Positions 17,637-54,314 of a stretch of 60,159 bases of DNA are shown here, piece by piece. The stretch lies in contig JASFTY010000001.1 of the NCBI GenBank assembly GCA_050050535.1, positions 1-60,159 of the forward strand, given 5' to 3'. The translations under genes and the position numbers were made by a program. The notes beneath the pieces were generated by a model. That model was given only the letters and a program-made list of their open reading frames with translations, had not been told where the DNA came from and ran no database searches. The stretch is from Gemmatimonadales bacterium. Lineage in GTDB: Bacteria > Gemmatimonadota > Gemmatimonadetes > Palauibacterales > KS3-K002. The first letter of the stretch is position 1. Each line of letters starts with the position of its first letter.

Positions 17637-19520
17637 TCAGCGCAGCCCCGCGAAGAATGCCGCCACATCCGCGAAGGCGCTGGGGTTCACCTCGTAGTAG
17701 CGGTTCTTCCCGTAGGCGCCCGTCGTCGGGTAGTGGGGTGGCGGACAGAACCTGGCGTTCGAGTCGTAGGCGTAGCGCTTCATGTACCCCTCGCCGCTGG
17801 TGAGTCCGACGGCGCCCCTCGTCTTCTGGATCAGTCCCCCCGTCAGGTACAGGCAACCGCGACCGTTGGGTCGATCTTCACAGGCCTCGGCGTCGCGCGG
17901 CCCGCTGTGGAAGTTCTCGACCGTGAAGCTCTGATCCAGCGTCAAGACTACGCCATCGATGAACTCGGACGGCGTGTCGTCGTAGGTGCGGCGACCACCC
18001 GGCACATTCGGGAATCGCTGAGGCGCGTTCAGGTTGTTGTCCGCCACGTAGAAGTTGCGCGCCGCGAGGAAGCCTGCGATGTCATTGCACTGCGCTGCAT
18101 TCGCGGGCACGGAATAGTTGAAGTCGTCGAGCAGCACGATGTTGTCGCTCGACACGATGGTGACACGGCCATTGAGCTCACCGCTCACGCCGATCAGGCC
18201 GTCGAAGAACAGGACGCCGCGAAATTCACCGTTATGTTCGCGGCTCAGCGGGAAGAGGAACGGGGCATCGTCGCGTCCCGCTAGAGCTTCGGGTATCGTC
18301 ATGCCCGGCGCGTGGTCTTCCCGTCTCAGCCACCCTGAGTCGTCGTCCGAACCGTCCCACTCATCGAAGCTCCGGCCGTCCATCCGCAGGCGGGGGTCCC
18401 CACCCAGATAGCAGCGGGAGGTTGGCGAGCGCGCCACCTCTCTGTAGACGCGCGTCCAATCGCTGGCGTCCTCGCCGTGCAGCAAGGCTGAATGGTTCTG
18501 CCATACGGCGATGTCGCCGGAGTACGGACCATCGTAGCCTTCGCCCAAGTAGAGCCGGCGGTGATTCGAGGCAGAGATGAACGTAGCTTCGCCGGTCACC
18601 GGATGGTTGTGTGTATCGCCGCAGTTCTCTGTCCATGTGTCCGTCCCTCTTGCCGCAAGCCATGCTGTGCTCGGAGACCTGTAGATTCTGTAGAAGCCTT
18701 CGCCTTCGTCGATCACGTCGCCGTCGCCGTTCAAGTCGATCACGACGAACTCGACCCGCATGCGGACATCGGTGGGGCCGCCGGTCGACGGGGTCGCGAA
18801 CAGCGAGCGGCCGCTCGCCGCCAGCGCTCGCAACCGGCTGAGATCGCCGCTGTCAGGCATCGGGATGGTGTCGACGTACTCCTCGTAGCCTTTCTCGAAC
18901 CTGCCGTTCCCGGGATAGAGAACGTCGCGCGCCGTGGTGACCTCGGCGTGGAAGGTCGCACCGGTGGAGTGGACCTTGATCTGATCGTTCGAGTGCACCG
19001 GGCCGAGCAGCCGGTCGCCGGCACCGAACCAGATGTTCCCGCCCTCGCTATCCGTGAAGTAGGCGAACCTGGCGAAGCTCTCCTCCGTCAGTTCAAGCCG
19101 CACGATGACCTCACTCCCACGTCCGCGAGCAACGCCCACGACACTGGCGAAGTTGCCGGTGCGGCCCGTCGCTGATCCGCTGCGGCCTGCGTAGATGCTC
19201 AGCTCGTAGTCGGCGAGCGGGTTACCCTCAGCATCCACCGGTGTGAGGCCGGATTCGAGAACGTTGTGTCCGACGTCCGGCAGCGCTTGCTCGTCCCGGT
19301 TGATGCGGCTGTGTCCCATCTCCGCCGCCATTGCCGCCAGGTAACGGAGATCGACCTGGGTCTGGGAGTAGATACGGAGCTGTCGCTCGCTGCCGCTCCT
19401 GAGGACCGCACCGGCGCTGACCGCGGCCAATACGACCAGCATCACCAGTGTGAGGATCAGTGCCGCACCGCGCTCGCCGTCCCGGCACAACGAGCCGGAC
19501 TCAACGCGATGTACTCTCAT
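17637..19520 (-). CDS. PilX-like type IV pilus minor pilin with very large C-terminal domain
   Basis: Start set at ATG 19520 (GGAGG SD). ERGAALILTLVMLVVLAAVSAGAVLRSGSERQ matches the PilX N-terminal domain. About 560 further residues include a GPVHSNDQIKV beta-helix-like motif. Confidence 0.65.
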   Translation of the reverse strand: MRVHRVESGSLCRDGERGAALILTLVMLVVLAAVSAGAVLRSGSERQLRIYSQTQVDLRYLAAMAAEMGHSRINRDEQALPDVGHNVLESGLTPVDAEGNPLADYELSIYAGRSGSATGRTGNFASVVGVARGRGSEVIVRLELTEESFARFAYFTDSEGGNIWFGAGDRLLGPVHSNDQIKVHSTGATFHAEVTTARDVLYPGNGRFEKGYEEYVDTIPMPDSGDLSRLRALAASGRSLFATPSTGGPTDVRMRVEFVVIDLNGDGDVIDEGEGFYRIYRSPSTAWLAARGTDTWTENCGDTHNHPVTGEATFISASNHRRLYLGEGYDGPYSGDIAVWQNHSALLHGEDASDWTRVYREVARSPTSRCYLGGDPRLRMDGRSFDEWDGSDDDSGWLRREDHAPGMTIPEALAGRDDAPFLFPLSREHNGEFRGVLFFDGLIGVSGELNGRVTIVSSDNIVLLDDFNYSVPANAAQCNDIAGFLAARNFYVADNNLNAPQRFPNVPGGRRTYDDTPSEFIDGVVLTLDQSFTVENFHSGPRDAEACEDRPNGRGCLYLTGGLIQKTRGAVGLTSGEGYMKRYAYDSNARFCPPPHYPTTGAYGKNRYYEVNPSAFADVAAFFAGLR

Positions 19521-19545
19521 CCGCCACACCTCCGGGTTCCGGGCG

Positions 19546-20709
19546 CTAGCCGCCCGGTGTGGTGACCGGTCCGGACGCGGCGAGCCCCGATTGAGCCGGC
19601 GTGCAATCGGTAGCGCCGAGCAGGTACACGTAGGTCTTGCCCGCCTGCAAATCCGAATCGACGTACACGTAGCTTGCTCCCGACGCGCCGGGTGGCAGTG
19701 CTGCGATCGGGCGGGGGAGTGGCTCACTCAGGTCGTGTCGATACAGCGTGTACTGCCGAACATCCATTTCGCCGGCCGACTCATCGACCGCTGGCGGCCA
19801 CGTCACCGTCACGCTGAGGGGAGACGTAAGAGTGGCGCTCGGCGCGACCCCCAGTTGCGGTGGATCGCCACACGCGGCGTTGCGAATCAAGCCTGCGTTC
19901 TTGAGTGCGATGCCCACGACGAACGGCCGTGCCACAGTCTCTCCAGGCCGGTCCCCATTCACCACGACGGTGAAGGCGGCCTCGACGAGCTTGATGCTGT
20001 CGGTGAGCGCGGAGGCCGCCGTGTCGGCGGCCGACCCGTGCTCGGGCGCGGCGTGCCAGATCGGGCCGCCACTCAGGTACCGTTGCCGACCTTCGGGGTC
20101 CATGAGCAGGTACGAGAAGAAGGCGCGCCCCTCGACCCGCTCGAGCCCGCGGAGCAGCGTGTCGGCGAGCTGCGCGTTCACTCGCCGGGTCAGCGCGTAG
20201 CGGCCGTCGCCGGTAGTCACGAACGAGAAGTGCAGCGTCTCGGCGGGACCCGGTGTACGGTCGGGGCCATACCAGCGCTGCGGGTAGTGCGCACCGTTGG
20301 GCAGGACGACGGAGGCCGAGTCTGCACCCTCGGTCTCGGTCACGGGCGCGCCAGGCAACTGGTAGACCGCGACGCGATCGCCCGGCGTGCTCGAAGCGAG
20401 GTCGACGCTGAAGACGAAGTCGTCCGGTCCGGCGAAGACGACTAGTGGTTGAGCATCCGGGATACCGGCACCGGCGAGGCCCGCTTCGCGACGCAGGAGC
20501 TCGGAGGCGAAGCGCGCCCGCTGCACTGCCTCGACCCTCACCCCAGCCAACCGAGAGCTGCGGTTCTGGGCAACGAAGAAGGAAAGCATCGAGCCGACGA
20601 CGATCCCGCTGATCGTCAGCGTCACGAGCAACTCGACCAGCGTGATACCGGCTCGGCGGCCGCGCTCGCGGTGCCGCGTCGTTTTTGCTCCGTCTGCGGA
20701 TGGCGTCAT
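19546..20709 (-). CDS. PilW-like minor pilin with C-terminal FN3-like domain
   Basis: Prepilin-type N-terminus RAG/ITLVELLVTLTISGIVVGS. The C-terminus (SVTVTWPPAVDESAGEMDVRQYTLYR...GKTYVYLLGATD) looks like a fibronectin type III module. Confidence 0.7.
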   Translation of the reverse strand: MTPSADGAKTTRHRERGRRAGITLVELLVTLTISGIVVGSMLSFFVAQNRSSRLAGVRVEAVQRARFASELLRREAGLAGAGIPDAQPLVVFAGPDDFVFSVDLASSTPGDRVAVYQLPGAPVTETEGADSASVVLPNGAHYPQRWYGPDRTPGPAETLHFSFVTTGDGRYALTRRVNAQLADTLLRGLERVEGRAFFSYLLMDPEGRQRYLSGGPIWHAAPEHGSAADTAASALTDSIKLVEAAFTVVVNGDRPGETVARPFVVGIALKNAGLIRNAACGDPPQLGVAPSATLTSPLSVTVTWPPAVDESAGEMDVRQYTLYRHDLSEPLPRPIAALPPGASGASYVYVDSDLQAGKTYVYLLGATDCTPAQSGLAASGPVTTPGG

Positions 20710-20729
20710 CTTCTCGTGTTCCAGCTTCC

Positions 20730-21140
20730 CTACTCGGCCACCGCCGTGCTGACACCCACGGGACGCAGGCCGCGGGGAGGCTCGACCGTGACGGTGATCA
20801 GGCGATAGGCGTAAAGTTCCTCAAGGTCCTCGCCGAACACCGCCACGTCGACGCGCCGCCTGAATTGCGGCGCCTCGGGCACGGGGGCCGCCGACCGAGA
20901 CACGATCTCATCGTACGGCAGCAGCCTGACGCGCTCGAGCTCCTGCATAGCGAACTCCACGGCCTGGGCCTGGACCTCGGAGATGCCGGCCTGGTGGACG
21001 AACTCGACGATCACTCGACCGCTGACGAGGATCGCTACCGTGAAGAGCACGATCGCGATCAGGACCTCCAGCACGGTGAAACCGCGTGTCGGGTCAGCCC
21101 CTGCAGGCGCGTCAGCTCGTCGACCACTTGCTGCCGTCAT
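20730..21140 (-). CDS. PilV-like minor pilin (prepilin-type N-terminal cleavage/methylation domain)
   Basis: TRG/FTVLEVLIAIVLFTVAILV N-terminus, small size, and a position between the FimT-like and PilW-like genes. Confidence 0.7.
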   Translation of the reverse strand: MTAASGRRADAPAGADPTRGFTVLEVLIAIVLFTVAILVSGRVIVEFVHQAGISEVQAQAVEFAMQELERVRLLPYDEIVSRSAAPVPEAPQFRRRVDVAVFGEDLEELYAYRLITVTVEPPRGLRPVGVSTAVAE

Positions 21141-26551: not shown

Positions 26552-27574
26552 TCACGATGCCCGCTCATGCCTGAGGAGTACCTTCCCAACGCTGCTTCTC
26601 GACTCGACGAGGGCATGCGCCTCGGCGACATCCTCGAACGGGAAGATCCTGCCGACGACCGGCTTGATCCCCTTATCGGAGACGAACACCCTAAGCCGCT
26701 CGAAGATCGCCTGCAGACGGGCGGGTTGGTCCAACAAGTAGCCGAGGTGCGTAGCCATGACGCCGGTGGACGCCTCGGCCATGTCGGAGATCCTGGCCCG
26801 CGGTAGGTCACGCCAGGTGCGCCACCAAGACAGCGGGTTCCAGACCTTCAGGTCGAGGCTGGCGAAGCCCGCTACGACCATCCGTCCGAACGGGTTCAGC
26901 AGACCCTGCGACCCTTTGTAGACGCGGCCGCCGACCGTCTCCAGGACGACGTCGGCGCCGCCGCTCACGGCGAGCAGCTGGTCGAAGCAGTCCGGGTCTC
27001 CGTAGCTCAGCGCCGCGCGCGCGCCGAGCGCGCGCACCAGGTCCAGCTTTTCCTGTGAGCCGGCAAGACCGTAAACCTCGCCGCCGAGCGCGGCCGCCAA
27101 CTGCACCGCCGCCGTCCCCACACCGCCGGCCGCCGCCGTGACGATCACCTTCTCCCCTTCGGCGAGACGCGCCAGCTCGGCGAGCGCCACCCAGGCGGTC
27201 ATGTAGTTGACGGGGAACGCCGCGTTCTCCTCCAGGGTGAAGGTATCGATGGCCGGGATGGCTCGCTCCTCGGGAACGACCACCGTCTCCGCGTAGCAAC
27301 CGAATTGGGTCCCGACCATCACCTGGCCACCGACGCGGGCAGTATCCACGCCATCGCCGACCGCGTCGATTACCCCCGCCCCCTCCATCCCCAGGATGTA
27401 CGGACGTTTTGGCGCCCAGGCGTAAAGGCCTTTCCTGGAAAGGATCTCGGCGTAGTTGATACCGCTGTAGGCCAGGCGAACGCGAACTTCGCCGGGTCCG
27501 GGCTCCGGTTCGGGCTGATCCGATAACCGGAGCACGTTGGGTCTGCCCGTCGCACGCAGTACGACCGCTCTCAC
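26552..27574 (-). CDS. NADPH:quinone oxidoreductase / zinc-type alcohol dehydrogenase superfamily (MDR)
   Basis: MRAVVL...GPGEVRVRLAYSGINYAE, AAGGVGTAAVQLA (Rossmann) and a C-terminal GKVLL are typical of Qor-like MDR enzymes. Confidence 0.85.
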   Translation of the reverse strand: MRAVVLRATGRPNVLRLSDQPEPEPGPGEVRVRLAYSGINYAEILSRKGLYAWAPKRPYILGMEGAGVIDAVGDGVDTARVGGQVMVGTQFGCYAETVVVPEERAIPAIDTFTLEENAAFPVNYMTAWVALAELARLAEGEKVIVTAAAGGVGTAAVQLAAALGGEVYGLAGSQEKLDLVRALGARAALSYGDPDCFDQLLAVSGGADVVLETVGGRVYKGSQGLLNPFGRMVVAGFASLDLKVWNPLSWWRTWRDLPRARISDMAEASTGVMATHLGYLLDQPARLQAIFERLRVFVSDKGIKPVVGRIFPFEDVAEAHALVESRSSVGKVLLRHERAS

Positions 27575-27581
27575 CGCACCC

Positions 27582-27941
27582 TCACAGAAGCTCCCTTACC
27601 CGCTCGGCCGGACGTGCGAGCAGGGCGCGGTCGCCCTTCTCGACGAGTGGTCGCTCCAGCAGCTCGGGATGCTTTGCGATGGCGTTGAGGATCTCGCCAT
27701 CCTTGATGCCCGGGCGGCCCAGGCCGAGATCTTTGTAGGCGCGTTCCCTCGGGCGCAATAGCTGGCGTGGAGTCACTCCAGCCTTTTTGACGAGCTGTCC
27801 GAGCCTTCTGCGTGACAGCGGATTGGCTATGTAGTCGACGCGATCGAAATCGATGCCGCTCTCACGGAGCAGCTTGACCAGCTTGCGACTGGCGGGTCAC
27901 GTCGGCTTCTCGTAGACGATGATACGGTCACTTCGGGTCAT
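27582..27941 (-). CDS. arsC: ArsC-family (glutaredoxin-type) arsenate reductase with in-frame TGA at the catalytic Cys position (candidate selenocysteine)
   Basis: ATG 27941 (GAGG SD) gives MTRSDRIIVYEKPT-[TGA 27897..27899]-PASRKLVKLLRESGIDFDRVDYIANPLSRRRLGQLVKKAGV, continuous in frame with track ORF 27582..27776. It aligns along its full length with R773 ArsC (IYHNPACGTSRNTLEMIRNSG...HPILINRPIV...LCRP, from memory). The TGA falls on Cys12, and the three catalytic Arg (LLRP, LERP, LARP) are retained. Confidence 0.65.
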
Positions 27942-28011
27942 TGCAGCCTCGTTTTCGCGGCTGGTCAACGGGAGTGGTCGGGCGTATCCGCTTCTTGCCG
28001 GCCGCCAGACA

Positions 28012-34515: not shown

Positions 34516-36333
34516 TTGAGCCAGCAACTACTCATCGCCTTGGCGAGCATCGTCACTCTCGGGATCGCGGCCGAGTGGTTGGCGTGGCGGATTCATCTGC
34601 CGTCGATCCTGGTTCTGTTGGTGTTCGGTTTCGCCGCCGGGCCGGTGAGTGGGTTCCTGGACCCGGACGCCATGCTGGGCGAGCTGCTCTTCCCGATCGT
34701 CTCGATCTCAGTAGCGATCATCCTGTTCGAGGGTGGCATGAGCCTCCGGTTGCGGGAATTGCGACAGATCGGCCATGTAGTACGCAACCTGGTGACCGTG
34801 GGCGCGCTGGTGACGTGGGGGCTGGCGGCACTCGCGGGGCATCTGGTGATCGGGCTGGAACTGGAGCCGGCGCTACTCCTGGGCGCGATACTGGTGGTGA
34901 CGGGTCCGACGGTGATCGTGCCGCTGCTGCGGCACGTGCGGCCGGTACATCAGGTGGGGTCGACGCTGAAGTGGGAAGGTATCCTGATCGATCCTATCGG
35001 AGCGGTCCTCGCGGTTCTCGTATTCGAGGCGGTGCTGGCCGGTGAGGTGGAGGCCGCGACGACGGCAGTGCTGCTGGCGCTATCCAGGACCGTGGTCATC
35101 GGTGCCGTGCTGGCGGCGCTGGGGGCCGGGCTCCTAGTCCTGCTGATGCATCGTCAGTGGGTTCCCGAGTTTCTGGAGAGTCCGTTGGCGCTGATGGTCG
35201 TGGTGGCGACGTTCGCGGGCTCGAACGTGCTGCAGCCGGAGTCGGGACTGCTCACGGCCACCCTGATGGGCGTCGCTGTGGCCAACCAGAAGGTCGTGGG
35301 GGTCCGGCACATTCTGGAGTTCAAGGAGAACTTGCGGGTCCTGCTGATCTCGGGCTTGTTCATCCTGCTGGCGGCACGTCTGCAGACGGCGGCTCTGCGA
35401 CAGATCGGGCTAGCCGAGGTGGGGTTTCTCGCGGCACTCATACTCGTGGTGCGGCCCGCCGCCGTCGCGCTCTCCTCCTTCAGGTCGGAGTTCAATTGGA
35501 GGGAGCGTGCCCTTTTGTCGTGGATCGCGCCGCGCGGAATCGTGGCGGCCGCGGTCTCCTCGATCTTCGCACTCGGGCTCGCCGAGGCCGGCTACGCAGG
35601 AGCCGATCGCTTGGTGGCGATTACCTTCATGGTGATCATCGCCACGGTAGCCATTTACGGTCTGACCGCCAGCCCGGTGGCCCGTTGGCTCGGCGTCGCC
35701 CAGCCCGACCCGCAGGGCGTGCTGATCGTAGGCGCGCATCCTTGGGCACGCGAGATCGCTCGAGAGCTCAAGGACGAAGGGATCCCCGTCCGCCTCGTCG
35801 ACACGAATTACGCCAACGTCGCGGAAGCCCGCATGGCCGGGCTGCCGGTCTACTATGGCAGCGCGTTGACCGAGGGCACGCTGGACAACATCGAGCTCGA
35901 GGGGATCGGCAACTTGCTGGCGCTGACCTCCAACGACGAGGTCAACTCGCTGACCGCCCTCCATTTCAGCGAGATCTTCGGCAGGGACAGGGTTTATCAG
36001 CTGCCGCCCGAGCAACTGGCCGACACCAAGAAGCAGGTGCTGTCGCAGCAGCTCCGGGGCCGCTTCCTGTTCGACCCCGACGCCTCGTACTGGCAACTGA
36101 CGGCCCGGTTCGACGCCGGCGCCGACGTCAAGACCACCAATTTGACGGAAACCTTCGATTTCCAAACATTCAGGGACCGTTACCGTGATGCGATCCCCCT
36201 ATTCCTTATCGGCGAGGGCGGTCGCCTGACCATCTTCACGGCAGAGGATCCGCCCAAGCCCAGCCGCGGGCAGCGAGTCGTGGCTGTCGTCGAGTCGCTG
36301 GAGGGAGCGGCCGAACGCACGGCTCGGCGCTGA
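34516..36333 (+). CDS. Na+/H+ (cation:proton) antiporter, CPA1/NhaP type, with C-terminal RCK/TrkA-like domain
   Basis: About 12 TM helices and an ILFEGG motif. C-terminal VLIVGAHPWAREIARELKDEGIPVRLVD is Rossmann-like. Confidence 0.85.
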   Translation: MSQQLLIALASIVTLGIAAEWLAWRIHLPSILVLLVFGFAAGPVSGFLDPDAMLGELLFPIVSISVAIILFEGGMSLRLRELRQIGHVVRNLVTVGALVTWGLAALAGHLVIGLELEPALLLGAILVVTGPTVIVPLLRHVRPVHQVGSTLKWEGILIDPIGAVLAVLVFEAVLAGEVEAATTAVLLALSRTVVIGAVLAALGAGLLVLLMHRQWVPEFLESPLALMVVVATFAGSNVLQPESGLLTATLMGVAVANQKVVGVRHILEFKENLRVLLISGLFILLAARLQTAALRQIGLAEVGFLAALILVVRPAAVALSSFRSEFNWRERALLSWIAPRGIVAAAVSSIFALGLAEAGYAGADRLVAITFMVIIATVAIYGLTASPVARWLGVAQPDPQGVLIVGAHPWAREIARELKDEGIPVRLVDTNYANVAEARMAGLPVYYGSALTEGTLDNIELEGIGNLLALTSNDEVNSLTALHFSEIFGRDRVYQLPPEQLADTKKQVLSQQLRGRFLFDPDASYWQLTARFDAGADVKTTNLTETFDFQTFRDRYRDAIPLFLIGEGGRLTIFTAEDPPKPSRGQRVVAVVESLEGAAERTARR

Positions 36334-36359
36334 TCCCCGACCGCAGAGAGACACGAGCG

Positions 36360-37973
36360 ATGAAACTCATCGGTGAGCTGTACCGCCTGCAGGAGGAACG
36401 CGGTTACCTACACCCCGACGACCTTGGGGCACTGGCCGAGCGACTGCGCGTTCCGCTCCACCGGGTCGAGGAGGTGGTGTCCTTCTACACGCACTTCCGC
36501 ACCGAGCCGCCGGCGAAGACGGAGGTCGCCATCTGCCGCGACCTCTCGTGTCACCTGCTGGAGTGCCGGGACTACTGCTCGAAGGTCCGAGGATTGTTGA
36601 GCGGCGACGGCACTGTGGATGTGCATGAGGTCTCATGCCTGGGGCGCTGTGAGTTCGCCCCCGCAGCCCTGGTGAATGATGTTCCGGTCGGCCGTGTCAG
36701 TCCTGAGGAGCTGGCCTACTACGCACGCGCGCCCGAAAGGCTGCCGCCGGCGCGTAGCGTGCACACGCGTCGCTGGCGCATCGACTACTGCGGCGAAAGC
36801 GGGCAGAAGTACTCGGCCTGCGAGCGCTACCGCGACGGCGGGGACGACGCAGCCGCCGAGATCATCGAGACGCTGAAGGCGGCCGGCCTGCGCGGGATGG
36901 GCGGCGCCGGTTTCCCGACAGGCCTCAAGTGGGAGCTGGTGCGCAAAGAGCCGGCCACACCGAAGTACGTTATCTGCAACGCGGACGAGAGTGAGCCGGG
37001 CGCGTTCAAGGATCGTGTGATCCACGAAGAGCTGCCTCACCTGGTGATCGAGGGGATGTGTCTCGCCGCGCTGGTCGCCGGGGCGAAGCAGGGATACATC
37101 TACGTGCGCAACGAGTACGAGCCGGAGCGGCGAGCGATGCAGCTGGCACTCGACGACGCGCGGGCGCGCGGCGTGCTGGGTGAGCACTTCGACGTCGAGA
37201 TCTTCGTTTCGCCCGGCGGTTACATACTCGGCGAGGAGACCGCGCTGCTCGAAGCACTGGAGGACCGGCGCGGCGAGCCGCGCAACAAGCCGCCCTATCC
37301 GGGCCAAAAGGGGTTGTGGGGTCGACCCACGGTGGTCAACAACGTCGAGACGCTCGCCCTCGTCCCTGCCATCCTGAGAAACGGCGCCGATTGGTGGAAG
37401 GCGCAGGGTGTTAGGGGTCACTCCGGCCTCAAGTTCATCGGCGTCTCGGGTCACGTGGAGAACCCGGGCGTCTTCGAGATTCACATGGGGACGACGGTGG
37501 CGGAGTTGATCGAGCGGGCCGGCGGAGTAAAGGACGGCAAGGCGCTCAAGGCATTCGCACCGGGCGGGGCGAGCTCGAACTTCTTACCTGCGGAGAAGGC
37601 CGACACGGAGATCGACTTCGAGACAATCGCCGACGCCGGCAGCATGCTGGGCGCCGCCGCCCTGGTCGTCATGGCGGAGGGCACCGACATGATCAAGGCG
37701 GCGACGAACGTCACACGGTTCTTCCGCAACGAGTCGTGCGGCAAGTGCGTACCGTGCCGCACCGGCATCGAGAAGGTCGTCGCCATGCTGGACGCGATAA
37801 TGGCCCGTGCGGGAGACGGCAAGCTCCGCGACATCCTCCCGACTCTGGAAGAGACGTTGGCCGAGACCTCGATCTGCGGGCTGGGCCAGGTGGCACTGGG
37901 GCCGATTAGCTCCGCGTTGAAGTACTGGGACGATGAACTGGACGCCTACCTTGCGAAGTCGCAGGGCCGGTGA
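36360..37973 (+). CDS. NAD-dependent formate dehydrogenase beta subunit (fused NuoE-like + NuoF-like)
   Basis: N-terminal 2Fe-2S thioredoxin-like module (VAICRDLSCHL...CLGRCEFAP), then GLRGMGGAGFPTGLKWE, the FMN/NAD site, and ESCGKCVPCR (4Fe-4S). Confidence 0.85.
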   Translation: MKLIGELYRLQEERGYLHPDDLGALAERLRVPLHRVEEVVSFYTHFRTEPPAKTEVAICRDLSCHLLECRDYCSKVRGLLSGDGTVDVHEVSCLGRCEFAPAALVNDVPVGRVSPEELAYYARAPERLPPARSVHTRRWRIDYCGESGQKYSACERYRDGGDDAAAEIIETLKAAGLRGMGGAGFPTGLKWELVRKEPATPKYVICNADESEPGAFKDRVIHEELPHLVIEGMCLAALVAGAKQGYIYVRNEYEPERRAMQLALDDARARGVLGEHFDVEIFVSPGGYILGEETALLEALEDRRGEPRNKPPYPGQKGLWGRPTVVNNVETLALVPAILRNGADWWKAQGVRGHSGLKFIGVSGHVENPGVFEIHMGTTVAELIERAGGVKDGKALKAFAPGGASSNFLPAEKADTEIDFETIADAGSMLGAAALVVMAEGTDMIKAATNVTRFFRNESCGKCVPCRTGIEKVVAMLDAIMARAGDGKLRDILPTLEETLAETSICGLGQVALGPISSALKYWDDELDAYLAKSQGR

Positions 37974-37988
37974 CCGGCGAGGAGACCG

Positions 37989-40811
37989 ATGATCAAGAAG
38001 GCGGAGACCAATCGAACCGTGAACCTGACGATCGACGGTCGCCAGGTCACGGTACCGGCAGGTACGACGATCTGGGATGCGGCGAGCGAGGTCGGGATCG
38101 AGATCCCCGGCCTTTGCCACGATCCGCGACTCCGGCCCATCGGCGTCTGCCGCATCTGCGTCGTCGACGTCGGTGAGCGCGTACTGGCAGCGGCCTGTGT
38201 GCGCGAGGTGGCCGACGGTATGAACGTGCAGACGAGCTCCGAGAAGGTGGACCGTTGCCGCAGGACGCTCACCGAGCTTCTGATGTCCGATTATCCCGCG
38301 GAATCGCTGCGAGAGCAGAAGACCGGTGACGACGCGCTGCTCGCGCTCGCCCGCGCCTACGGAATCGAGCCGGCGGCGATCGAGCTGCCCGCCGGCGACG
38401 GGCGACCCCAGGACCTCTCGTCGCCGGTCATCGACGTGGATCATGCCGCCTGCATCCTCTGCGACCGCTGCATCCGCGCCTGCGACGAGGTCCAGCACAA
38501 CGACGTCATCGGGCGTACCGGCAAAGGTTACAGGTCAAGGATCGCTTTCGACCTCGACGTGCCGATGGGCGACAGCACCTGCGTCGCCTGTGGTGAGTGC
38601 GCCGCCGTTTGCCCCACCGGGGCGCTCACCGACAAGAGACTCATGGTACCGATCCAACCGCGGGGAGAGCTGCAGAGCGTCGAATCGGTCTGTCCGTACT
38701 GTGGCGTCGGCTGCGCCATCACCTACCACGTGGACCGAGACGCCAACGCCGTCGTGTTCGCCGAGGGGCGCGAGAGCCCCGCCAGCGACTCGCGCCTCTG
38801 TGTGAAGGGGCGCTACGGCTTCGACTACGCGAAGCATCCGCAACGCCTGACGGTCCCACTGATACGTAGGGACAATTTCTATCCGAAGGGCCCACTCTCC
38901 TCCGACGTGAAAGGCGAACGGCGCAGAAAGCTGGGCGGCCTGGTGGACTACGACGAGGTGATGCCGGCCTTCCGCGAGGCGACCTGGGAGGAGGCCTTGG
39001 ACTTGGCCGCCAGCCGCTTGCGCGAGATAAGGGAGAAGGACGGTCCTTCGGCGCTGGCCGGGTTCGGCTCGGCGAAGTGCAGCAACGAGGAGGGCTATCT
39101 CTTTCAGAAGCTGGTGCGCGCAGTATTCGGGACGAACAACGTGGATCACTGTACACGCCTGTGTCACGCATCATCGGTGGCAGCTCTGCTCGAGACGATC
39201 GGGTCGGGCGCGGTCACCAATGTCTTTGCCGACGTACACAACGCCGATGTCGCCGTGGTGACGGGCAGCAATACGACGGTGAACCACCCGGTGGCGGCGA
39301 CGTTCATCAAGGACGCTGCAGCGAAGGGGACGACACTCATCGTGATCGACTCGCGCGAGACCGGGATCGCCAGGCATGCGCACCACTTCCTGCACATCAG
39401 AGCCGGATCAGACGTAGCGCTGTACAACGCGATGATGCACGTGCTGATCGAGGAAGACCTCATCAATCACGCTTACATCCGCGACTACGCCGAGGGTTTC
39501 GACGGGCTGCGCGAGCTGGTGAACAGGTACACACCGGAGATGGCGCAAGAGATCTGTGGCATCTCGGCCGACCGGATCAGGGAGGTCGCCCGTGTGTTCG
39601 GACGCGCTGACGCGGCTCTGATCTTCTGGGGGATGGGCATCTCTCAGCATTCGCACGGCACCGACAACGCCCGCTGCCTGATCTCGCTGGCCCTGCTCAC
39701 CGGCAATGTGGGTCGCCCGGGGACCGGCCTTCACCCGTTGCGCGGGCAGAACAACGTGCAGGGCGCCTCGGACGCCGGTCTGATCCCGATGGTCTACCCG
39801 GACTATCAGCGGGTAGCGAGCTCGGCGTCGAGGAAGAAGTTCGAGGAGGCGTGGGGCGTGACGCTCGACCCGAACCCGGGGCTCACCGTCGTCGAGATCA
39901 TCAACGGTGCACTGGCCGGGCAGATCAAGGGCATGTACATGATGGGCGAGAACCCCTTCCTGTCGGACCCCAACGCGAACAAGGTCCGGAAGGCGCTCGC
40001 CAACCTCGAGTTCCTCTGCTCGCAGGACATCTTCCTCACCGAGACGGCCGAGTTCGCCGACGTCATCCTGCCGGCGACCTCTTTCTTCGAGAAGCAGGGG
40101 ACCTACACGAACTCGGATCGCCGCGTCCAGGTCGGGCAGAAGGTGATCGAGCCGCCCGGTCAGGCGCGCCTCGACTGGGAGCTGGTCTGTGAGATCGCGA
40201 CGCGGATGGGCTATCCGATGAGCTACGGCGGCGCCGACGAGATCTTCGCCGAGTTCACCTCACTGGCGCCCAGTTATTCGGGCCTCGACTACGAGAACCT
40301 GCGGCCTGTGGGCAAACTGTGGCCCTGCCCCGATCCGGCGACGGGCGATGGTCTGCAGTTGCTGTTCGGCGACGGGTTCCCCACCGCGAGTGGCCGCGGC
40401 AAGTTCGTGCCCGTCGACTACCAGCCGGCGGCAGAGCTGCCCGACGACGAGTACCCCTTCATCCTGGCCACCGGCAGGCTGCTCGAGCACTGGCATACCG
40501 GGACGATGACGCGCAGGTCCAAGGCCCTCGACGCCATCGAGCCGGAGGCGACATGCCAGATGAACCCGGACGACCTAGCCGACTTGGGTATCGATCCGGA
40601 CGGCTACGTGACGCTGAGCACGCGGCGCGGGTCGATCACGCTGCGGGCGCGGAGCACGCCCGGCGTGGCGCGAGGAAACGTCTTCGCTCCGTTCCACTTC
40701 CGCGAGGCTCCGGCCAACATGCTCACAAACGACGTGCTGGACCCCTTCGGGAAGATCCCGGAGTACAAGTTCTGCGCGGTGAAGGTGGAGAAGGCCGAGC
40801 CGCCCGCCTGA
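37989..40811 (+). CDS. Formate dehydrogenase alpha subunit (molybdopterin oxidoreductase), Cys-type
   Basis: N-terminal 2Fe-2S/4Fe-4S modules (GVCRICVV, CILCDRCIRAC, CVACGECAAVCP), CPYCGVGCAI, and VDHCTRLCHASSV, where codon 392 (TGT, 39162..39164) occupies the Sec/Cys active-site column. Confidence 0.9.
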   Translation: MIKKAETNRTVNLTIDGRQVTVPAGTTIWDAASEVGIEIPGLCHDPRLRPIGVCRICVVDVGERVLAAACVREVADGMNVQTSSEKVDRCRRTLTELLMSDYPAESLREQKTGDDALLALARAYGIEPAAIELPAGDGRPQDLSSPVIDVDHAACILCDRCIRACDEVQHNDVIGRTGKGYRSRIAFDLDVPMGDSTCVACGECAAVCPTGALTDKRLMVPIQPRGELQSVESVCPYCGVGCAITYHVDRDANAVVFAEGRESPASDSRLCVKGRYGFDYAKHPQRLTVPLIRRDNFYPKGPLSSDVKGERRRKLGGLVDYDEVMPAFREATWEEALDLAASRLREIREKDGPSALAGFGSAKCSNEEGYLFQKLVRAVFGTNNVDHCTRLCHASSVAALLETIGSGAVTNVFADVHNADVAVVTGSNTTVNHPVAATFIKDAAAKGTTLIVIDSRETGIARHAHHFLHIRAGSDVALYNAMMHVLIEEDLINHAYIRDYAEGFDGLRELVNRYTPEMAQEICGISADRIREVARVFGRADAALIFWGMGISQHSHGTDNARCLISLALLTGNVGRPGTGLHPLRGQNNVQGASDAGLIPMVYPDYQRVASSASRKKFEEAWGVTLDPNPGLTVVEIINGALAGQIKGMYMMGENPFLSDPNANKVRKALANLEFLCSQDIFLTETAEFADVILPATSFFEKQGTYTNSDRRVQVGQKVIEPPGQARLDWELVCEIATRMGYPMSYGGADEIFAEFTSLAPSYSGLDYENLRPVGKLWPCPDPATGDGLQLLFGDGFPTASGRGKFVPVDYQPAAELPDDEYPFILATGRLLEHWHTGTMTRRSKALDAIEPEATCQMNPDDLADLGIDPDGYVTLSTRRGSITLRARSTPGVARGNVFAPFHFREAPANMLTNDVLDPFGKIPEYKFCAVKVEKAEPPA

Positions 40812-40834: not shown

Positions 40835-41812
40835 CTACTCGATCTCGGCAGCCTGGCCAGGGCGGCGCGCGCCGAACCGGATCTCCACTGGGTAGCCGGC
40901 GGCGAACTCGGAGAATCTGCCGGGCGACATCGCCCAGATGCTCGACCGCGCTCCGCCGGCCATCGCCTGCAGGACCTCGACCTCGCGCCGCAGCCCGTCG
41001 TCCCCCGAGATGTCCTCGGCGAAGGTCGCGGCCAGCGCGCGCAGGCGGTCCCGAAGGGTCCGCGGCTCGATCTCCACGACAGCATCTCCTTCGAACCCCG
41101 GCTGCACGAACTGCTGCCACCAGCCGTATTCCTCGTCGGGCAACTCATTACCCCGGGTCAGGATGAGACCCGCCAATTCGCTGGTCAGGTTATGCACACG
41201 GAACGCCGGGCCCTCTCGCGTGGCAAAGCTGAGGCTGAGCCGCTTGACCCCGGCATCCTCGACCAGCGCCTGGAGGTCCCTCCGCATCTCACCCTCGTCC
41301 AGATACGCGTTCACCGCCATGCTGCCCTGCAGGCTCCGCAACTCTATCGAGTAGCGATACCAGCCGGAAGCGGGGCCCGTGGAGTAGTAGGCCGACTCAT
41401 CAACGAGATACTGCGGGAAGAGCTCTATCCCGTCTTTCGTTCGAACGATCTTCCCTGTCTCGACCGCGAATTCCCTCCGCCGGGCTGCAGTCTCCCCGAA
41501 GCGCAGGCGAAGGGCGACCACAAGGGCGGCCAACAGAGTTCCGGCGGGTGCGAATGACAGGCCGACGTAACCGAACGGACCCCGGGCGGCGAAGCACGCT
41601 CCTGTCGAGATCAGCACCGCCCACGGCCAGACATTGCAGCCGTTGACGGAGGCGGAAGAGACCGAGTTCTCCCGACCCAGCACCGCTACGAACAGGTCCA
41701 CCAGATAGTGCAGCGTGAACAGGCTGACCAGCGCACTGAGCAGAAAGGCGATAGCGAGATAGACCACCGTTCGCCTACGCCACAGTGGCTTAGTACCGGA
41801 AGACCGCCGCAA
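40835..41812 (-). CDS. Hypothetical membrane protein (about 3 N-terminal TM helices plus a soluble domain of about 210 aa)
   Basis: Overlaps the upstream eRF1-like gene by 23 nt. No family recognised. Confidence 0.6.
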   Translation of the reverse strand: MRRSSGTKPLWRRRTVVYLAIAFLLSALVSLFTLHYLVDLFVAVLGRENSVSSASVNGCNVWPWAVLISTGACFAARGPFGYVGLSFAPAGTLLAALVVALRLRFGETAARRREFAVETGKIVRTKDGIELFPQYLVDESAYYSTGPASGWYRYSIELRSLQGSMAVNAYLDEGEMRRDLQALVEDAGVKRLSLSFATREGPAFRVHNLTSELAGLILTRGNELPDEEYGWWQQFVQPGFEGDAVVEIEPRTLRDRLRALAATFAEDISGDDGLRREVEVLQAMAGGARSSIWAMSPGRFSEFAAGYPVEIRFGARRPGQAAEIE

Positions 41813-42938
41813 CCGGGCTCCGCGCGTCCGGGACTTCGGTCGGGCTGACCGCGTAGACGTCTCCGGCGTGCGCCAGCGTCAGCACCGCGGCAAGGTCCAG
41901 CAGGTCCTGGTCACCCGGCTGCCGATCCTCGTGTAGCTCCAGTTCGCCGGCAGCCGCCTCGAACGCGCCCCAGCGCTGCACACCCACCGCAACGAAGAGC
42001 GAGTCAACACGACCTTGAAAGGCCGACGGTACGATCCTCTTCAGATCGGCCGATGTCTTGCCCGTCCCGGCCAATTCCCGGTATTTCGCAGACGCCCGCG
42101 CCTGCACTGTGGCGAAATGCGGCTCCAAAATGGCCCAGGCCTCGTCATGAAGCTCCCGAGCCGACAGCCCATCGGGATTACCGATGATCCCTTCGTCCAT
42201 CAGCTGGGCGTAGGTGCTCGCCTCGCGGTAGATGGGCAGTAGATAGTCGACACCGGCCACGACCAGCGGGATGCGCTCCGCGGACATCAACTCCTGCAGC
42301 CCCCGATCGACCCGCTTGAAATAGCGGAGCAGATCCTTCTTGTGCTCCGACTCGTCACCCGCCGAGCCGTGGCCGTGGAAGATCGCCGACCCTCCCCGCC
42401 CGGCGGTGTGGTATTGCAGTTGTCTCTCTCGCTCCTCGTCGCCCAAGGCCTCGGAGAGGCTCGTCGGCGCATCCTCCAAGTTCACCTCATCGATGCTGTG
42501 CCGCGTCCCGAGCAGCAGGCGAACCTGCTTCTGACTCACGGCCAGGACGTAGAAGCGTCCGTCGCCGCTGAGTAGTGGCAGCAACGGCTTCACGTGGAAT
42601 CGATCGGTGACCACGACGAGCTCGGCGAAGCTGACCGGCAGCCGATAGCTGCGAAACGTTTCCGGTGAAGCGAACACGGCGAGCCCATCACTCTGATGCT
42701 GCCAGAACATCTTGTCGCCCAGTAGCCTCCGCGCCGGCTCGAGGATCCTCTCGGCGTCGGCACGACGCAGCCCGTTCTTGCGGAGTCGCTCTTCCGACTG
42801 CCTGAGCAGGTTCTTCAGCCGGATAGGATCCTGCTGCGTCTCGGGGCCTAGCCGATGGGTGGGCAGGTATATCGAGACGCACAGGTCGCCGCGCTCATCG
42901 ATGAGCGTGCCTATTTCCACTCTGTTCAGGATATCCAT
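41790..42938 (-). CDS. Bacterial eRF1-like (baeRF superfamily) protein
   Basis: The N-terminus (LCVSIYLPTHRLGPETQQDPIRLKNLLRQSEERL), the central GRFYVLAVSQKQVRLLLG, a Gly-rich loop (HTAGRGGSAIFHGHGSAG), then EHKKDLLRYFKRVDRGLQELM..IPLVVAGVDYLLPIYRE follow the layout I recall for baeRF / host-attachment-protein families. Confidence 0.55.
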   Translation of the reverse strand: MDILNRVEIGTLIDERGDLCVSIYLPTHRLGPETQQDPIRLKNLLRQSEERLRKNGLRRADAERILEPARRLLGDKMFWQHQSDGLAVFASPETFRSYRLPVSFAELVVVTDRFHVKPLLPLLSGDGRFYVLAVSQKQVRLLLGTRHSIDEVNLEDAPTSLSEALGDEERERQLQYHTAGRGGSAIFHGHGSAGDESEHKKDLLRYFKRVDRGLQELMSAERIPLVVAGVDYLLPIYREASTYAQLMDEGIIGNPDGLSARELHDEAWAILEPHFATVQARASAKYRELAGTGKTSADLKRIVPSAFQGRVDSLFVAVGVQRWGAFEAAAGELELHEDRQPGDQDLLDLAAVLTLAHAGDVYAVSPTEVPDARSPVAAVFRY

Positions 42939-43038
42939 CTCGACCTCTCGCTAGCACGCGGCTTGTGGCGGGCCTGGACTGAGACCGGGCGTTCTCGGCA
43001 CCGATTGTCAAGATACCATCCTTCGTCACGCACGCCAC

Positions 43039-51332: not shown

Positions 51333-51422
51333 GATATCAAAGAGATTAGGTAGAGCCCATTACCCCCGCCGCTACGTAGTCGGGAAGCCTTCGCTTCACC
51401 AAGAGGCAGGAGACGTGGGAGG

Positions 51423-53012
51423 ATGATGTCCGACCCCACCTCGGTCGATCGGACCACGGTGGATGAACTGACCGGGAAGCTCGTTCTGCTCATCGATGAG
51501 AATCGAGCCTGGCGGGAGACCGATCTGATGCATCGGCAACTCGCCGCCAAGGTCAAGACCTACGTCCGTTATGCCCGCAGCCCGAAGTTCGTCGCAGATC
51601 ACGGCCGGCAGGCGCAGGGCGCGATCGTTCGAGTCGTTACGGCCCAGCCACCCGGCGACGTCTCCCTCAGCTTCTTCGAGCGCGTGGCGTACGAGCTCAG
51701 CAAACACGGCCTCCAGTTCGAGCACCAGGTTGGCGAAGACGGTGTCCCCGTCACTGTAACACCGAGCGCCGACGCGACCGCTCCGCCGCCCCAGCCGCGC
51801 AAGGCGCCGCCTGCAGCCGGGCCCGCCCGGGCACCGACGCGCGCAGCACCGCCGCCGGCCGCGCCGCCGCCCCCGGCCCCAGCCGCTCCGCAGCCGGGGC
51901 CACCTGTGACGCCGCCCGCTCCGCCTCCGCGCCCCGCGCCGCCGCCACCAACCCCGCAGAAGCCGGCCGCCGCGCCGCCAACCCCGGAGAAGCCGGCCGC
52001 CGCGCCGCCAACCCCGCAGAAGCCGGCCGCCGCGCCGCCGCCGCCACCGCCGCCGCCCCCCCCGACCCCAGAGGTGCCGCCAGCACAGGCGCCGCCCGAC
52101 CCCTGGGCGGAGGACGAAGCTGCGGAACCGGCTCGGCCACAGCCGCCACCGCCGACGGCGCCGGACCCCCTCGAAGCGCACGAGCCGGCGGGTTTCGATT
52201 TCGAGCCTGCTGAACCGGCAGGGATCGACTTCGAGCCGGCTTTTCCCGAGGAGCCGGAAGGACGCGAGACCGGCGCCGAGCCACCTGCCAGCGAGCTGGA
52301 ACGGCTGATCGAAGACGACGCCGAGGAGATAGAGTTCGTTGGCGCGCAGGAGGATCCGGCGCCGGTCGCCAGCGCACCTACTCCGGGACCTGGGGCAGCC
52401 GGAGAATCGAAACCTCCGCGGTTCTTCCCGGAGGAGGAGTTCGGGCGAGCCCTGCCGGACGTGGACGAGGTCGACGCGGCCCTGGGGATCGACGCCGAAG
52501 CGACAACGGCCGTTATCGAGACGGCGTCCGGCCAGCAGATCCGGCTCGATGAGCCGAGCGCGCTGGATGCAGCGCTCGCCGCACCGATCCCGGAAGAGCC
52601 ACGCCCCAGCCTGCTCCGCGCCGTCGGCGCGGCGATCGCGGCGGCGTTCGCCGGCGCGATCATCTGGGTGCTGCTGGCGATACCGGCGGCCACCGGCGCC
52701 AGCCCCCTGGCGATCGCCATTGCCGTCATGGTCGGCTTCGGTGTGAGGCTGCGCGGCGGTGGGCACACGACGGGATTCCGCGTCGTGGGGATCCTCGGCA
52801 CACTGCTCGGTTCGGCGCTCGGTTCGGTCGGCGCGGCCGTGGCGCTCAGCGCGATGGAGACCGGGACGCAGCTCCCGGGTGTCGTGGAAATCTTGTCGGA
52901 CCCCAACGCCGTGCTCGCCGTCTGGACCGATCGCTACGGTCCCCTCGACCTCATATCACTGCTCTTCGCGGGCTATTTCGCTTTCCGGATCTCCGCCTCA
53001 AAGCCCAGCTGA
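51423..53012 (+). CDS. Hypothetical protein: globular N-domain, proline-rich repeat linker, acidic region, C-terminal 3-4 TM helices
   Basis: N-domain of about 110 aa, then a PAPPPP/KPAAAPPTP(Q/E) tract, an acidic segment rich in E, D and P, and C-terminal hydrophobic helices (AIAAAFAGAIIWVLLAIPAA...). Confidence 0.65.
   Translation: MMSDPTSVDRTTVDELTGKLVLLIDENRAWRETDLMHRQLAAKVKTYVRYARSPKFVADHGRQAQGAIVRVVTAQPPGDVSLSFFERVAYELSKHGLQFEHQVGEDGVPVTVTPSADATAPPPQPRKAPPAAGPARAPTRAAPPPAAPPPPAPAAPQPGPPVTPPAPPPRPAPPPPTPQKPAAAPPTPEKPAAAPPTPQKPAAAPPPPPPPPPPTPEVPPAQAPPDPWAEDEAAEPARPQPPPPTAPDPLEAHEPAGFDFEPAEPAGIDFEPAFPEEPEGRETGAEPPASELERLIEDDAEEIEFVGAQEDPAPVASAPTPGPGAAGESKPPRFFPEEEFGRALPDVDEVDAALGIDAEATTAVIETASGQQIRLDEPSALDAALAAPIPEEPRPSLLRAVGAAIAAAFAGAIIWVLLAIPAATGASPLAIAIAVMVGFGVRLRGGGHTTGFRVVGILGTLLGSALGSVGAAVALSAMETGTQLPGVVEILSDPNAVLAVWTDRYGPLDLISLLFAGYFAFRISASKPS
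51948..52037 (+). repeat. 3 x 30-bp perfect/near-perfect tandem repeat inside the proline-rich CDS
   Basis: Unit ccaaccccgcagaagccggccgccgcgccg at 51948, 51978 and 52008. The middle copy differs by one base (cag to gag). It encodes PTPQKPAAAP x3. Confidence 0.9.
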
Positions 53013-53204
53013 CGAGGTGCAGGGAGACGGCACGATTCCTTGCGCTAGAGCGCGTTTCCAGTATCTTGCCGAATGCTGGACCCCCCTCAAACCAGCCGCG
53101 GGGTGCGCGGTGATTCTGTCCTCAGTTGTAGCGATTCCTATATCGAGATGTAGGTCTACGCTTCGGACCTACCAGGCGACATCGTGCTTCACAGGGAGGT
53201 AAGC

Positions 53205-54314
53205 GTGAGAATCACGACGCATCACTGGCTGACGCGCTTCGCAGCGATCGCGCTCGCGCTGTCGCTCGCGGCGGCATGCCAGGACGAGTCCACCGGCCCC
53301 ACTCTGGAGGAGGTCGATCCGGAGGGTATGGCCGCGTCCATCGGGGACATCGTGGGCTCGCTCACCGGCAACGCCGAGCTCCAGAGTTACAACCAGATGA
53401 GCGAGTTCATCGGGTTGGCGCTGGGAGGCGGCGCGGCCCCGACGTTCGACTTCGCGGAGGGGCAGGGTCTGCAGCAGGGGCTCGGTACTTTCTCGCGGCG
53501 GCTCGCGGCCTGCTCGATCCAGGAGCCGACTGCGGCACTGGCCGGGCCGATCATCGACAGCGAGTGGGCGGGCACCGTCTTCGTCTGGGGTGGGGACGGC
53601 TACGTTCCGGGTGACGAGCCCAACCCGTTCGACGAGGGGGTCGATGCCGTCCGCTTCATCTTATACGCGATCGACCCGATCGAAGGGCCGATCGTGGAGT
53701 TGCCGGTCGGCCACGTCGACTTCATCGACGAGAGCGTCGAGGGTCAGGGCAACACGTTGCGGGTAGTCGTTACACCGATCGGACGTGATCCGATAGTGAA
53801 CTACGCCGTGACCTGTGAGCTCGTCGGGTTCGCCGTCGAGGTCGCGGGCACGGGATTCATCAGCGACGGCGTTACGCAGATTAACCTGGACCTTTACCTG
53901 GCCGTCACTCAGTCCGGTGCCGTATCGATGGATTTCACCCTCGATGTGCCGTCAGCGAACCTGGAGATCCGATTCTCGGCCGAGGCTGATAGCTTCGACG
54001 CCTTCGACGAGGGCGGCACCTTCGACGCCATGTTCTCGATAAGCCGGAACAACGCAGTCCGCTTCGACGTGAGCGCTGTAGACGACGTGCTGGACGGCGT
54101 CGTGCGGTTCTGCGATGCCGGCAACGCTTGCTCGACCGTAGCGGTGATCAGCGGAACACTCGACGATCCGATCATCACGGACGCCCAGGGCGACCAACTC
54201 GGGCAGGGGGCGATCTTGGCTATCGGAACCCTGTTCGAGGCCGCCGGAGCTTTCGTCGAGAACCTGCTGCCGATGCTGGCACCGGCGTTCGAGATCTGCA
54301 TACCGGTCGGCTGA
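53205..54314 (+). CDS. Hypothetical lipoprotein
   Basis: GTG 53205 has a GGGAGG SD 6 nt upstream. Lipobox LSLAAAC. No family recognised. Confidence 0.65.
   Translation: MRITTHHWLTRFAAIALALSLAAACQDESTGPTLEEVDPEGMAASIGDIVGSLTGNAELQSYNQMSEFIGLALGGGAAPTFDFAEGQGLQQGLGTFSRRLAACSIQEPTAALAGPIIDSEWAGTVFVWGGDGYVPGDEPNPFDEGVDAVRFILYAIDPIEGPIVELPVGHVDFIDESVEGQGNTLRVVVTPIGRDPIVNYAVTCELVGFAVEVAGTGFISDGVTQINLDLYLAVTQSGAVSMDFTLDVPSANLEIRFSAEADSFDAFDEGGTFDAMFSISRNNAVRFDVSAVDDVLDGVVRFCDAGNACSTVAVISGTLDDPIITDAQGDQLGQGAILAIGTLFEAAGAFVENLLPMLAPAFEICIPVG

Follow-up and report, generated by a model that had tools for sequence, protein, structure and literature searches.

We analysed a stretch of 60,159 nucleotides (nt) from a Gemmatimonadales bacterium (contig JASFTY010000001.1 of assembly GCA_050050535.1; hereafter the window), in which a gene of the ArsC arsenate reductase family occupies positions 27582..27941 of the minus strand. 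Read through an internal stop codon, it forms a complete coding sequence of 119 codons, running from the ATG at 27941..27939 to the final TGA at 27584..27582 and preceded by a Shine-Dalgarno-like GAGG on the same strand (27947..27950, 5 nt 5' of the ATG, as read from the sequence). The frame holds one internal stop only, the TGA at codon 15 (27899..27897), which we predict to encode selenocysteine (Sec). The list of open reading frames (ORFs) gives just the last 64 codons of this locus (27582..27776), called from a GTG start. Upstream, an ORF of the CaCA (Na/Ca-exchanger) family ends 70 nt before the ATG, and downstream a zinc-containing alcohol dehydrogenase (Zn-ADH)/quinone-oxidoreductase ORF starts with the GTG at 27574, 7 nt past the ArsC stop. 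An earlier interpretation made from the letters and the ORF list (the sequence-only reading) had located the ATG, the codon-15 TGA, the stop, the ORF-track fragment and the gaps to both neighbours, all of them correctly. From the comparison with relatives set out below, we consider it highly probable that the locus is a genuine selenoprotein gene.

For profile and structure-library matches, Cys was put in place of Sec at codon 15. The product then matches Pfam ArsC (PF03960) over residues 10–117 at E = 2.9e-14, its 53.6 bits lying above the gathering threshold (cutoff 24). Among NCBIfam models TIGR00014, 'arsenate reductase (glutaredoxin)', scores well ahead of those for Spx and YffB, and the best matches in the PDB are true arsenate reductases, aligned over their full length (2mu0, E = 2.5e-22; R773 ArsC, 1i9d/1jzw, E = 3e-16). 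None of the NCBIfam models named '(seleno)protein' reached its cutoff for the ArsC family here. The alignment to R773 ArsC is gap-free and places the TGA on the catalytic Cys12, and Arg63 (27753..27755), Arg97 (27651..27653) and Arg110 (27612..27614; all minus strand) on Arg60, Arg94 and Arg107. The nucleophile position and the three arginines are invariant across the family in two alignments. The sequence-only reading had assigned the TGA to an R773-type Cys12, noted three catalytic arginines and seen no other Cys nearby; the alignment agrees on each count, and the protein in fact contains no cysteine at all.

Compared with R773 ArsC (PDB 1i9d, 1j9b and 1jzw), the window protein aligns without gaps over about 113 residues, keeps the nucleophile position and the arginine triad, and has the same C/U-x-x-S form of the motif (CGTS in R773, UPAS in the window, where U denotes Sec). 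It differs in carrying Sec for Cys, in its length (119 against 141 residues) and in being cysteine-free. The protein does not qualify as an RNA-polymerase-binding regulator of the Spx/MgsR type: its 54.1 bits with the Spx-type model TIGR01617 fall short of the cutoff (75.05), and in place of CxxC it has a UxxS motif that lacks the second Cys.

A genome scan retaining one genome per species returned 80 ArsC-family loci (loci and fetched sequences are labelled with L-numbers). The codon aligned to codon 15 of the window gene is TGA in 35 of these species genomes and TGC or TGT in the remaining 45, so that the Cys/Sec pairs sought at this column by the sequence-only reading are indeed present among its relatives. 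TGA forms occur in Gemmatimonadota, Longimicrobiales and Acidobacteriota, the last including Pyrinomonadaceae, Terriglobia and Marinacidobacterales, and a rough neighbour-joining tree needs at least eight Sec/Cys interchanges. Nearly all relatives have the motif CxxC or UxxC (YEKPT-[C/U]-T-T-C-R), with UxxC in 27 of the 35 TGA-bearing homologues (UTTC, USTC, UTKC, UGTC or USAC). Ser at the fourth position of the motif, encoded in the window by AGT at 27888..27890 (Ser18, minus strand), is found only in the window and its clade (L005, L008 and L010–L014), the other 75 homologues examined having Cys there. This UxxS clade is monophyletic in the same tree and sister to UGTC forms; hence, as far as the tree can be trusted, the window clade has lost the resolving Cys secondarily.

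The gene appears intact. A JGI metagenome contig assembled independently from sample 3300037297 is identical in 4142 of 4142 bases, TGA included; its annotation contains only a 58-residue ArsC fragment (L092:3310-3486). In a protein-database search the closest relatives (68–80% identity) were all N-terminally truncated entries of 98–99 or 66 residues, and more distant relatives (45–62% identity) were full length. In the DNA behind each truncated entry, the frame continues upstream past a TGA at the codon equivalent to codon 15 as far as an ATG matching the window start, with which the orthologue starts are in line. This region reads YEKPT-TGA-(P/T)AS-R, and the 14 codons upstream of the TGA are conserved with partly synonymous differences. 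Across 38 TGA-bearing sequences the coding sequence is conserved on both sides of the TGA. Where relatives have the GTG that the callers take as the start of the 98-residue fragments, the window has GTC, and no internal start is conserved. The splitting of the gene at the TGA, already remarked on from the 64-codon entry of the ORF list, recurs in the public calls (JGI, NCBI and Logan), which for TGA forms are truncated to 58–99 residues in every genome examined. The truncated database entries (P0001-P0004, P0017, P0040, P0084, P0095 and P0096) are 98–99 residues long, from internal GTG or ATG starts, or 66 residues long, and bear the label 'arsenate reductase'.

Gene order around the locus is conserved as well. 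The series P-type ATPase, CaCA exchanger, ArsC, Zn-ADH and M14 peptidase is shared with relatives, and the conservation reaches the nearby genes for a Na/H exchanger and for FdsB/FdsA-like proteins. Two complete chromosomes of the Gemmatimonadota, CP070815.1 and CP070823.1, are among the genomes whose syntenic orthologues have the TGA at this codon, and CP070815.1 shows the gene order just described.

Downstream of the UGA the mRNA contains a hairpin that we propose as the selenocysteine insertion sequence (SECIS). It consists of a stem of 7 base pairs (bp) and a pentaloop, GCUGCUC-CGUGA-GAGCGGC (27855..27873, minus strand; +27..+45 counted from the U of the UGA), lies 23 nt downstream of the UGA and overlaps codons 24–29 (L-L-R-E-S-G). 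Its predicted free energy is −11.6 kcal/mol, with pair probabilities of about 1.0. The apical loop (27862..27866, minus strand) starts at +34 and conforms to the family consensus CG[U/G]G[A/U]. Of 38 TGA genes, 36 have such a pentaloop on a stem of at least 6 bp, at 21–34 nt from the UGA, as against none of 45 Cys genes; in the remaining two TGA genes, the loop of the corresponding 7-bp hairpin deviates from the consensus. Taken together, a TGA conserved in 35 genomes, Cys at the same codon in 45 and a hairpin confined to TGA forms strongly support the Sec reading, and with it the assignment of a Sec codon to the catalytic residue of an ArsC-type protein, first made without any relatives to hand.

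The hairpins fall into three classes by loop start: +34 (the class of the window, H2), +21 and +25. The +34 class comprises the window clade, L015, Pyrinomonadaceae and others, and L062, and no H2-type TGA gene lacks the hairpin. Five Gemmatimonadota (L024, L043, L044, L048 and L072) form the +21 class, with GAAGCU-CGUGA-AGCUUC, and six Terriglobia the +25 class, with GUCAAG-CGUGU-CUUGAC. The stems of the three classes are unrelated in sequence and the loop is common to all. For 27 sequences of the +34 class, aligned by codon and not fitted to the hairpin, RNAalifold returned the proposed helix as the sole consensus helix. Synonymous sites within it are strongly constrained: at conserved amino acids of the 27 genes, normalised codon entropy is 0.10 over the six hairpin codons against 0.60 over 40 other columns (Mann-Whitney p = 2e-4), and the Arg codon that supplies loop nucleotides 1–3 is CGT in 22 of 27 genes, other Arg columns favouring CGC. 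Within the 60-kb window, a TGA followed by a hairpin at 19–37 nt and flanked by open frame on both sides occurs once, in the ArsC gene. No further TGA-bridged selenoprotein gene was detected in the window by two scans based on GC content at third codon positions (GC3) or by the scan for TGA plus hairpin.

Codon choice is also biased outside the hairpin. In 22 of 27 H2-class genes, GC-rich as they are, the Thr codon directly preceding the UGA is ACT (the window has ACG, 27902..27900), and all 27 use CGC for the Arg at +4; these biases suggest a constraint on the sequence context of the recoded UGA beyond the hairpin itself. A few Cys-form homologues have a 7-bp hairpin at a Sec-form position with an altered loop. 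L065 (Terriglobia, 3043-3105) has GUCAAG-CGCGU-CUUGAC at +25; L071 (Thermoleophilaceae) has one with a CGCCG loop at +21; and L016 (Longimicrobiales) retains an H2-like GCUGCGGGAGAGCGGC. Such hairpins resemble relics of a SECIS that outlasted the replacement of Sec by Cys.

The element resembles bacterial SECIS of the fdhF type (the bSECISearch consensus as given in PMC1088965 and PMC2398784) in being a hairpin within the coding sequence, just past the UGA, with a conserved G in its apical loop (here within G-U or G-G). It departs from them in its perfect, bulge-free stem of 6–8 bp and fixed CG[U/G]G[A/U] pentaloop, and in the occurrence of three hairpin positions (+21, +25 and +34) with unrelated stems in one protein family.

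As a whole, the locus is very probably best explained as an intact gene for a 119-residue selenoprotein of the thioredoxin-fold ArsC family with a CGUGA-hairpin SECIS and R773-like catalysis. Several results count against the Sec and SECIS parts of this explanation. Searches of the window and of some 0.55 Mb from related loci (ARAGORN; tblastn with E. coli SelA, SelB and SelD) revealed neither tRNA-Sec nor selA, selB or selD, and Pfam scans of about 40 window ORFs likewise gave no sel genes. No SECIS or other RNA family was matched in Rfam, either in an E-value scan of 27500..28000 or in a scan of the whole window at gathering thresholds. The best hairpin downstream of the codon is no more stable in Sec than in Cys genes (−9.8 versus −9.9 kcal/mol, p = 0.99), and the minimum-free-energy fold of the 66-nt region is no more stable than shuffled sequences (z = −0.38); because the genes are GC-rich, raw stability is uninformative, and only the loop and shape signature discriminates. 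Within the +34 class the stem is nearly invariant, with two one-sided compatible changes and no covariation (n = 27). An alignment across classes anchored on the loop does show pairing in 97% of cells and double changes at all seven pairs, but it was fitted to the hairpins and is thus illustrative and not an independent test. Finally, the SECIS of E. coli fdhF has G23/U24 in a loop starting at about +22, and the window loop lies some 12 nt further from the UGA. We regard a functional Sec system as very likely in the TGA-bearing lineages, judging from their sequences.

That all callers treat the TGA as a stop and return fragments only would fit an error of sequencing or assembly, or a pseudogene inactivated by mutation. 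Against this reading stand the identical second assembly, the recurrence of the TGA in 35 species-level genomes of two phyla without other stops or frameshifts, purifying selection on the N-terminal codons and a TGA-specific hairpin with frozen synonymous sites. The sequence-only reading had dismissed a pseudogene and had pointed to decay in close relatives as a check; no additional stop or frameshift was seen in any TGA-bearing orthologue, and we judge error or pseudogene extremely improbable. That no Sec machinery was seen in the sequences searched would sit more comfortably with a UGA that is passed without Sec, whether by near-cognate read-through with Trp, Cys or Arg, by lineage-wide reassignment of UGA, or by termination and re-initiation to give a truncated protein. 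UGA is an ordinary stop in this genome, terminating the ArsC gene itself and neighbouring genes, so it has not been reassigned; homologues carry Cys at the position and not Trp or Arg; and re-initiation would yield a protein without the nucleophile and the first β-strand, besides which the internal GTG of relatives is GTC in the window. Such routes are, in our estimate, very improbable. A further alternative accepts the selenoprotein but places its SECIS closer to the UGA, in a hairpin proposed by the sequence-only reading: an AGCU-GGUCA-AGCU core (27871..27883, minus strand, overlapping the proposed SECIS) within an outer CCGC/GCGG stem, its loop about 21 nt from the UGA. This hairpin takes the same position as the longer one of the five +21-class genes, its loop (G22, U23) is at the same distance as their CGUGA loops and near the fdhF position of G23/U24, and AGCU-GGUGA-AGCU is kept in the nearest relatives of the window (L005, L008, L010 and L011). 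Yet its core has only 4 bp (−6.5 to −9.6 kcal/mol), and competition from the more stable hairpin further downstream leaves its pairs with a probability of about zero. In L012, L013 and L014, which retain TGA and UxxS, G.G and C.A mismatches disrupt it, and it is missing from all Acidobacteriota genes of the H2 class. The AGCU/AGCU pairing itself arises from the AAG-CUG ... AAG-CUG codons of K-L-x-K-L, AGCU being self-complementary. We think it unlikely, by a wide measure, that this hairpin serves as the SECIS; given a selenoprotein, the element at 27873..27855 can be taken as the SECIS in its place with good confidence.

The AGCU/GGUCA/AGCU hairpin with its outer stem can thus be drawn on the sequence, as had been proposed, but was set aside as the SECIS of this gene, being neither the predicted fold (−9.6 kcal/mol, pair probability about zero) nor conserved. 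A conserved hairpin in TGA-carrying orthologues does exist, as the sequence-only reading had anticipated, but it is the element 10 nt further downstream. A second hairpin of 6–7 bp, GCCAGU-CGCAA-GCUGGU, lies directly 3' of the UGA (27877-27894, minus strand; +6/7..+23/24). It is limited to the window, L005, L008, L010 and L011, and is seen neither in L012–L014 nor beyond.

The selenoprotein reading suggests the following mechanism, in which the insertion of Sec, the binding of SelB and the identity of substrate and reductant are inferred from sequence comparisons. The UGA at 27899..27897 would be recoded as Sec during translation, the 7-bp hairpin at 27873..27855 with its CGUGA loop acting as a bacterial SECIS that brings SelB-GTP-Sec-tRNA(Sec) to the ribosome. 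Sec15 would then occupy the position of Cys12 of R773 ArsC, within the oxyanion-binding triad equivalent to Arg60, Arg94 and Arg107. By nucleophilic attack on arsenate, or on some comparable oxyanion or electrophile, its selenolate could form a covalent Se adduct. Since the motif is UxxS and the protein is free of cysteine, resolution of this adduct would need an external thiol, such as a glutathione/glutaredoxin-like system, whereas UxxC and CxxC relatives could use their internal Cys.

Whether arsenate is the physiological substrate we put at roughly an even chance. The designation 'arsenate reductase' adopted by the sequence-only reading stands for family membership; as a statement of function it amounts to a family label. 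The TIGR00014 score of 102.5 bits narrowly misses the equivalog cutoff of 106.05, and the ars operon context is missing, with no ars genes (arsB/acr3, arsR, arsA or arsM) in Pfam scans of the window ORFs and no ars genes beside any of the 80 homologues. The recurrent neighbours of these homologues are instead housekeeping genes and the like, for RadA-like, glutamate dehydrogenase, alanine racemase, TonB, EncFtn, CaCA and Zn-ADH proteins. Both points would suit a genuine selenoprotein with a role other than arsenate detoxification, such as a housekeeping thiol/selenol oxidoreductase or a reductase of other oxyanions or electrophiles built on the ArsC scaffold. Such a role would be in keeping with the CxxC/UxxC dithiol motif of most relatives, which R773 ArsC lacks, and the tight, conserved pairing with the Zn-ADH/quinone-oxidoreductase gene in Gemmatimonadota hints at a common redox task. 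Against it, the R773 nucleophile position and the three arsenate-binding arginines do not vary across the family, and true arsenate reductases are the best matches in NCBIfam and the PDB. We see a role apart from arsenate as a serious possibility, though somewhat the less probable side of the question; it bears on function only and is compatible with the selenoprotein, and its probability is not to be summed with that of the overall explanation. A broader combination would see in the protein a selenoenzyme with a housekeeping role, widespread in soil Gemmatimonadota and Acidobacteriota and acting on a substrate other than arsenate, its UGA being read by way of a lineage-specific SelB motif (a bulge-free hairpin of 6–8 bp with a CG[U/G]G[A/U] loop) that was rebuilt at +21, +25 and +34, the window clade having switched from a dithiol-type UxxC to a monoselenol UxxS. 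We offer this combination tentatively and think it unlikely to hold in all its parts.

To our knowledge, no natural Sec-containing ArsC has been characterised. Selenoproteins of this kind have been predicted before. In 2005 Zhang, Fomenko and Gladyshev described 'Arsenate reductase, UXXS, COG1393', with 14 sequences from the Sargasso Sea, as a selenoprotein family new at the time (PMC1088965), 'ArsC-like' selenoproteins were listed in Deltaproteobacteria in 2006 (PMC1794560), and Zhang and Gladyshev predicted 'Arsenate reductase (ArsC) 1' (pfam03960/COG1393, UxxS) again from the Global Ocean Sampling data in 2008 (PMC2398784). Two further predicted families have the UxxC motif, 'Arsenate reductase 2' (cd03032; PMC2398784) and 'Arsenate reductase-like protein' (COG1393; PMC9312934), and a 2022 review leaves ArsC-type families outside the 16 selenoprotein families verified by experiment (PMC9312934). 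The remark of the sequence-only reading that ArsC-like selenoproteins had been predicted from marine metagenomes and not characterised biochemically accords with these sources (PMC1088965, PMC2398784 and PMC9312934). The library searched contained nothing relevant on selenoproteins in Gemmatimonadota or Gemmatimonadetes.

The window gene shares with 'Arsenate reductase (ArsC) 1' its Pfam and COG family, the UxxS motif, Sec at the catalytic Cys, widespread Cys homologues and a SECIS-like hairpin with an apical-loop G just past the UGA. It differs in its setting, Gemmatimonadota in place of marine metagenomes, and in its nearest relatives, which are UxxC and CxxC forms of Gemmatimonadota and Acidobacteriota; the two were compared by family definition. 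The UxxC families have a counterpart in the 27 TGA-bearing homologues with that motif, but the window protein has Ser for the second Cys, and it scores 102.5 bits with TIGR00014 as against 54.1 with TIGR01617. The predicted gene is thus consistent with the computationally defined UxxS family and, as such, is unsurprising to a specialist. Since the tree nests the window clade among UxxC and CxxC relatives of soil type, its UxxS state may have arisen independently of the marine one. Modestly new are the Gemmatimonadota setting, the apparently derived UxxS state inside a UxxC/CxxC clade, and candidate SECIS elements with a CGUGA loop at three alternative positions in one family.

The comparative set carries a family predicted from the sea into Gemmatimonadota. 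Truncation by gene callers removes the catalytic residue, and conceals the selenoprotein in dozens of soil and sediment lineages. The CGUGA pentaloop hairpin is a clean signature that could improve the calling of Sec genes in Gemmatimonadota and Acidobacteriota, and a cysteine-free UxxS enzyme would make a simple system in which to compare selenolate with thiolate chemistry on arsenate. None of these points alters views of how selenoproteins work.

Elsewhere in the window, several long ORFs of high GC3 (347–696 residues) have no Pfam match at E ≤ 1e-5, namely those at 17640-19727 (−), 19549-20820 (−), 51354-53009 (+), 53154-54311 (+) and 40838-41878 (−). The last of these, of 347 residues, adjoins an ORF at 41793-42950 (−) for a bacterial archaeo-eukaryotic release-factor-like protein (baeRF family 3/7, Pfam E = 2.6e-49). 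The baeRF proteins are little understood, and we found no connection between this ORF and UGA recoding at the ArsC gene. On the plus strand, an FdsB-like gene (a NuoE/NuoF fusion, 36189-37973) is followed by an FdsA-like gene (NuoG N-terminus plus molybdopterin oxidoreductase, 37974-40811). The pair resembles an NAD-linked enzyme of the formate-dehydrogenase type, whose α subunit is free of in-frame TGA and is thus a non-Sec form. Synteny of the pair with the ArsC locus extends to CP070815.1.

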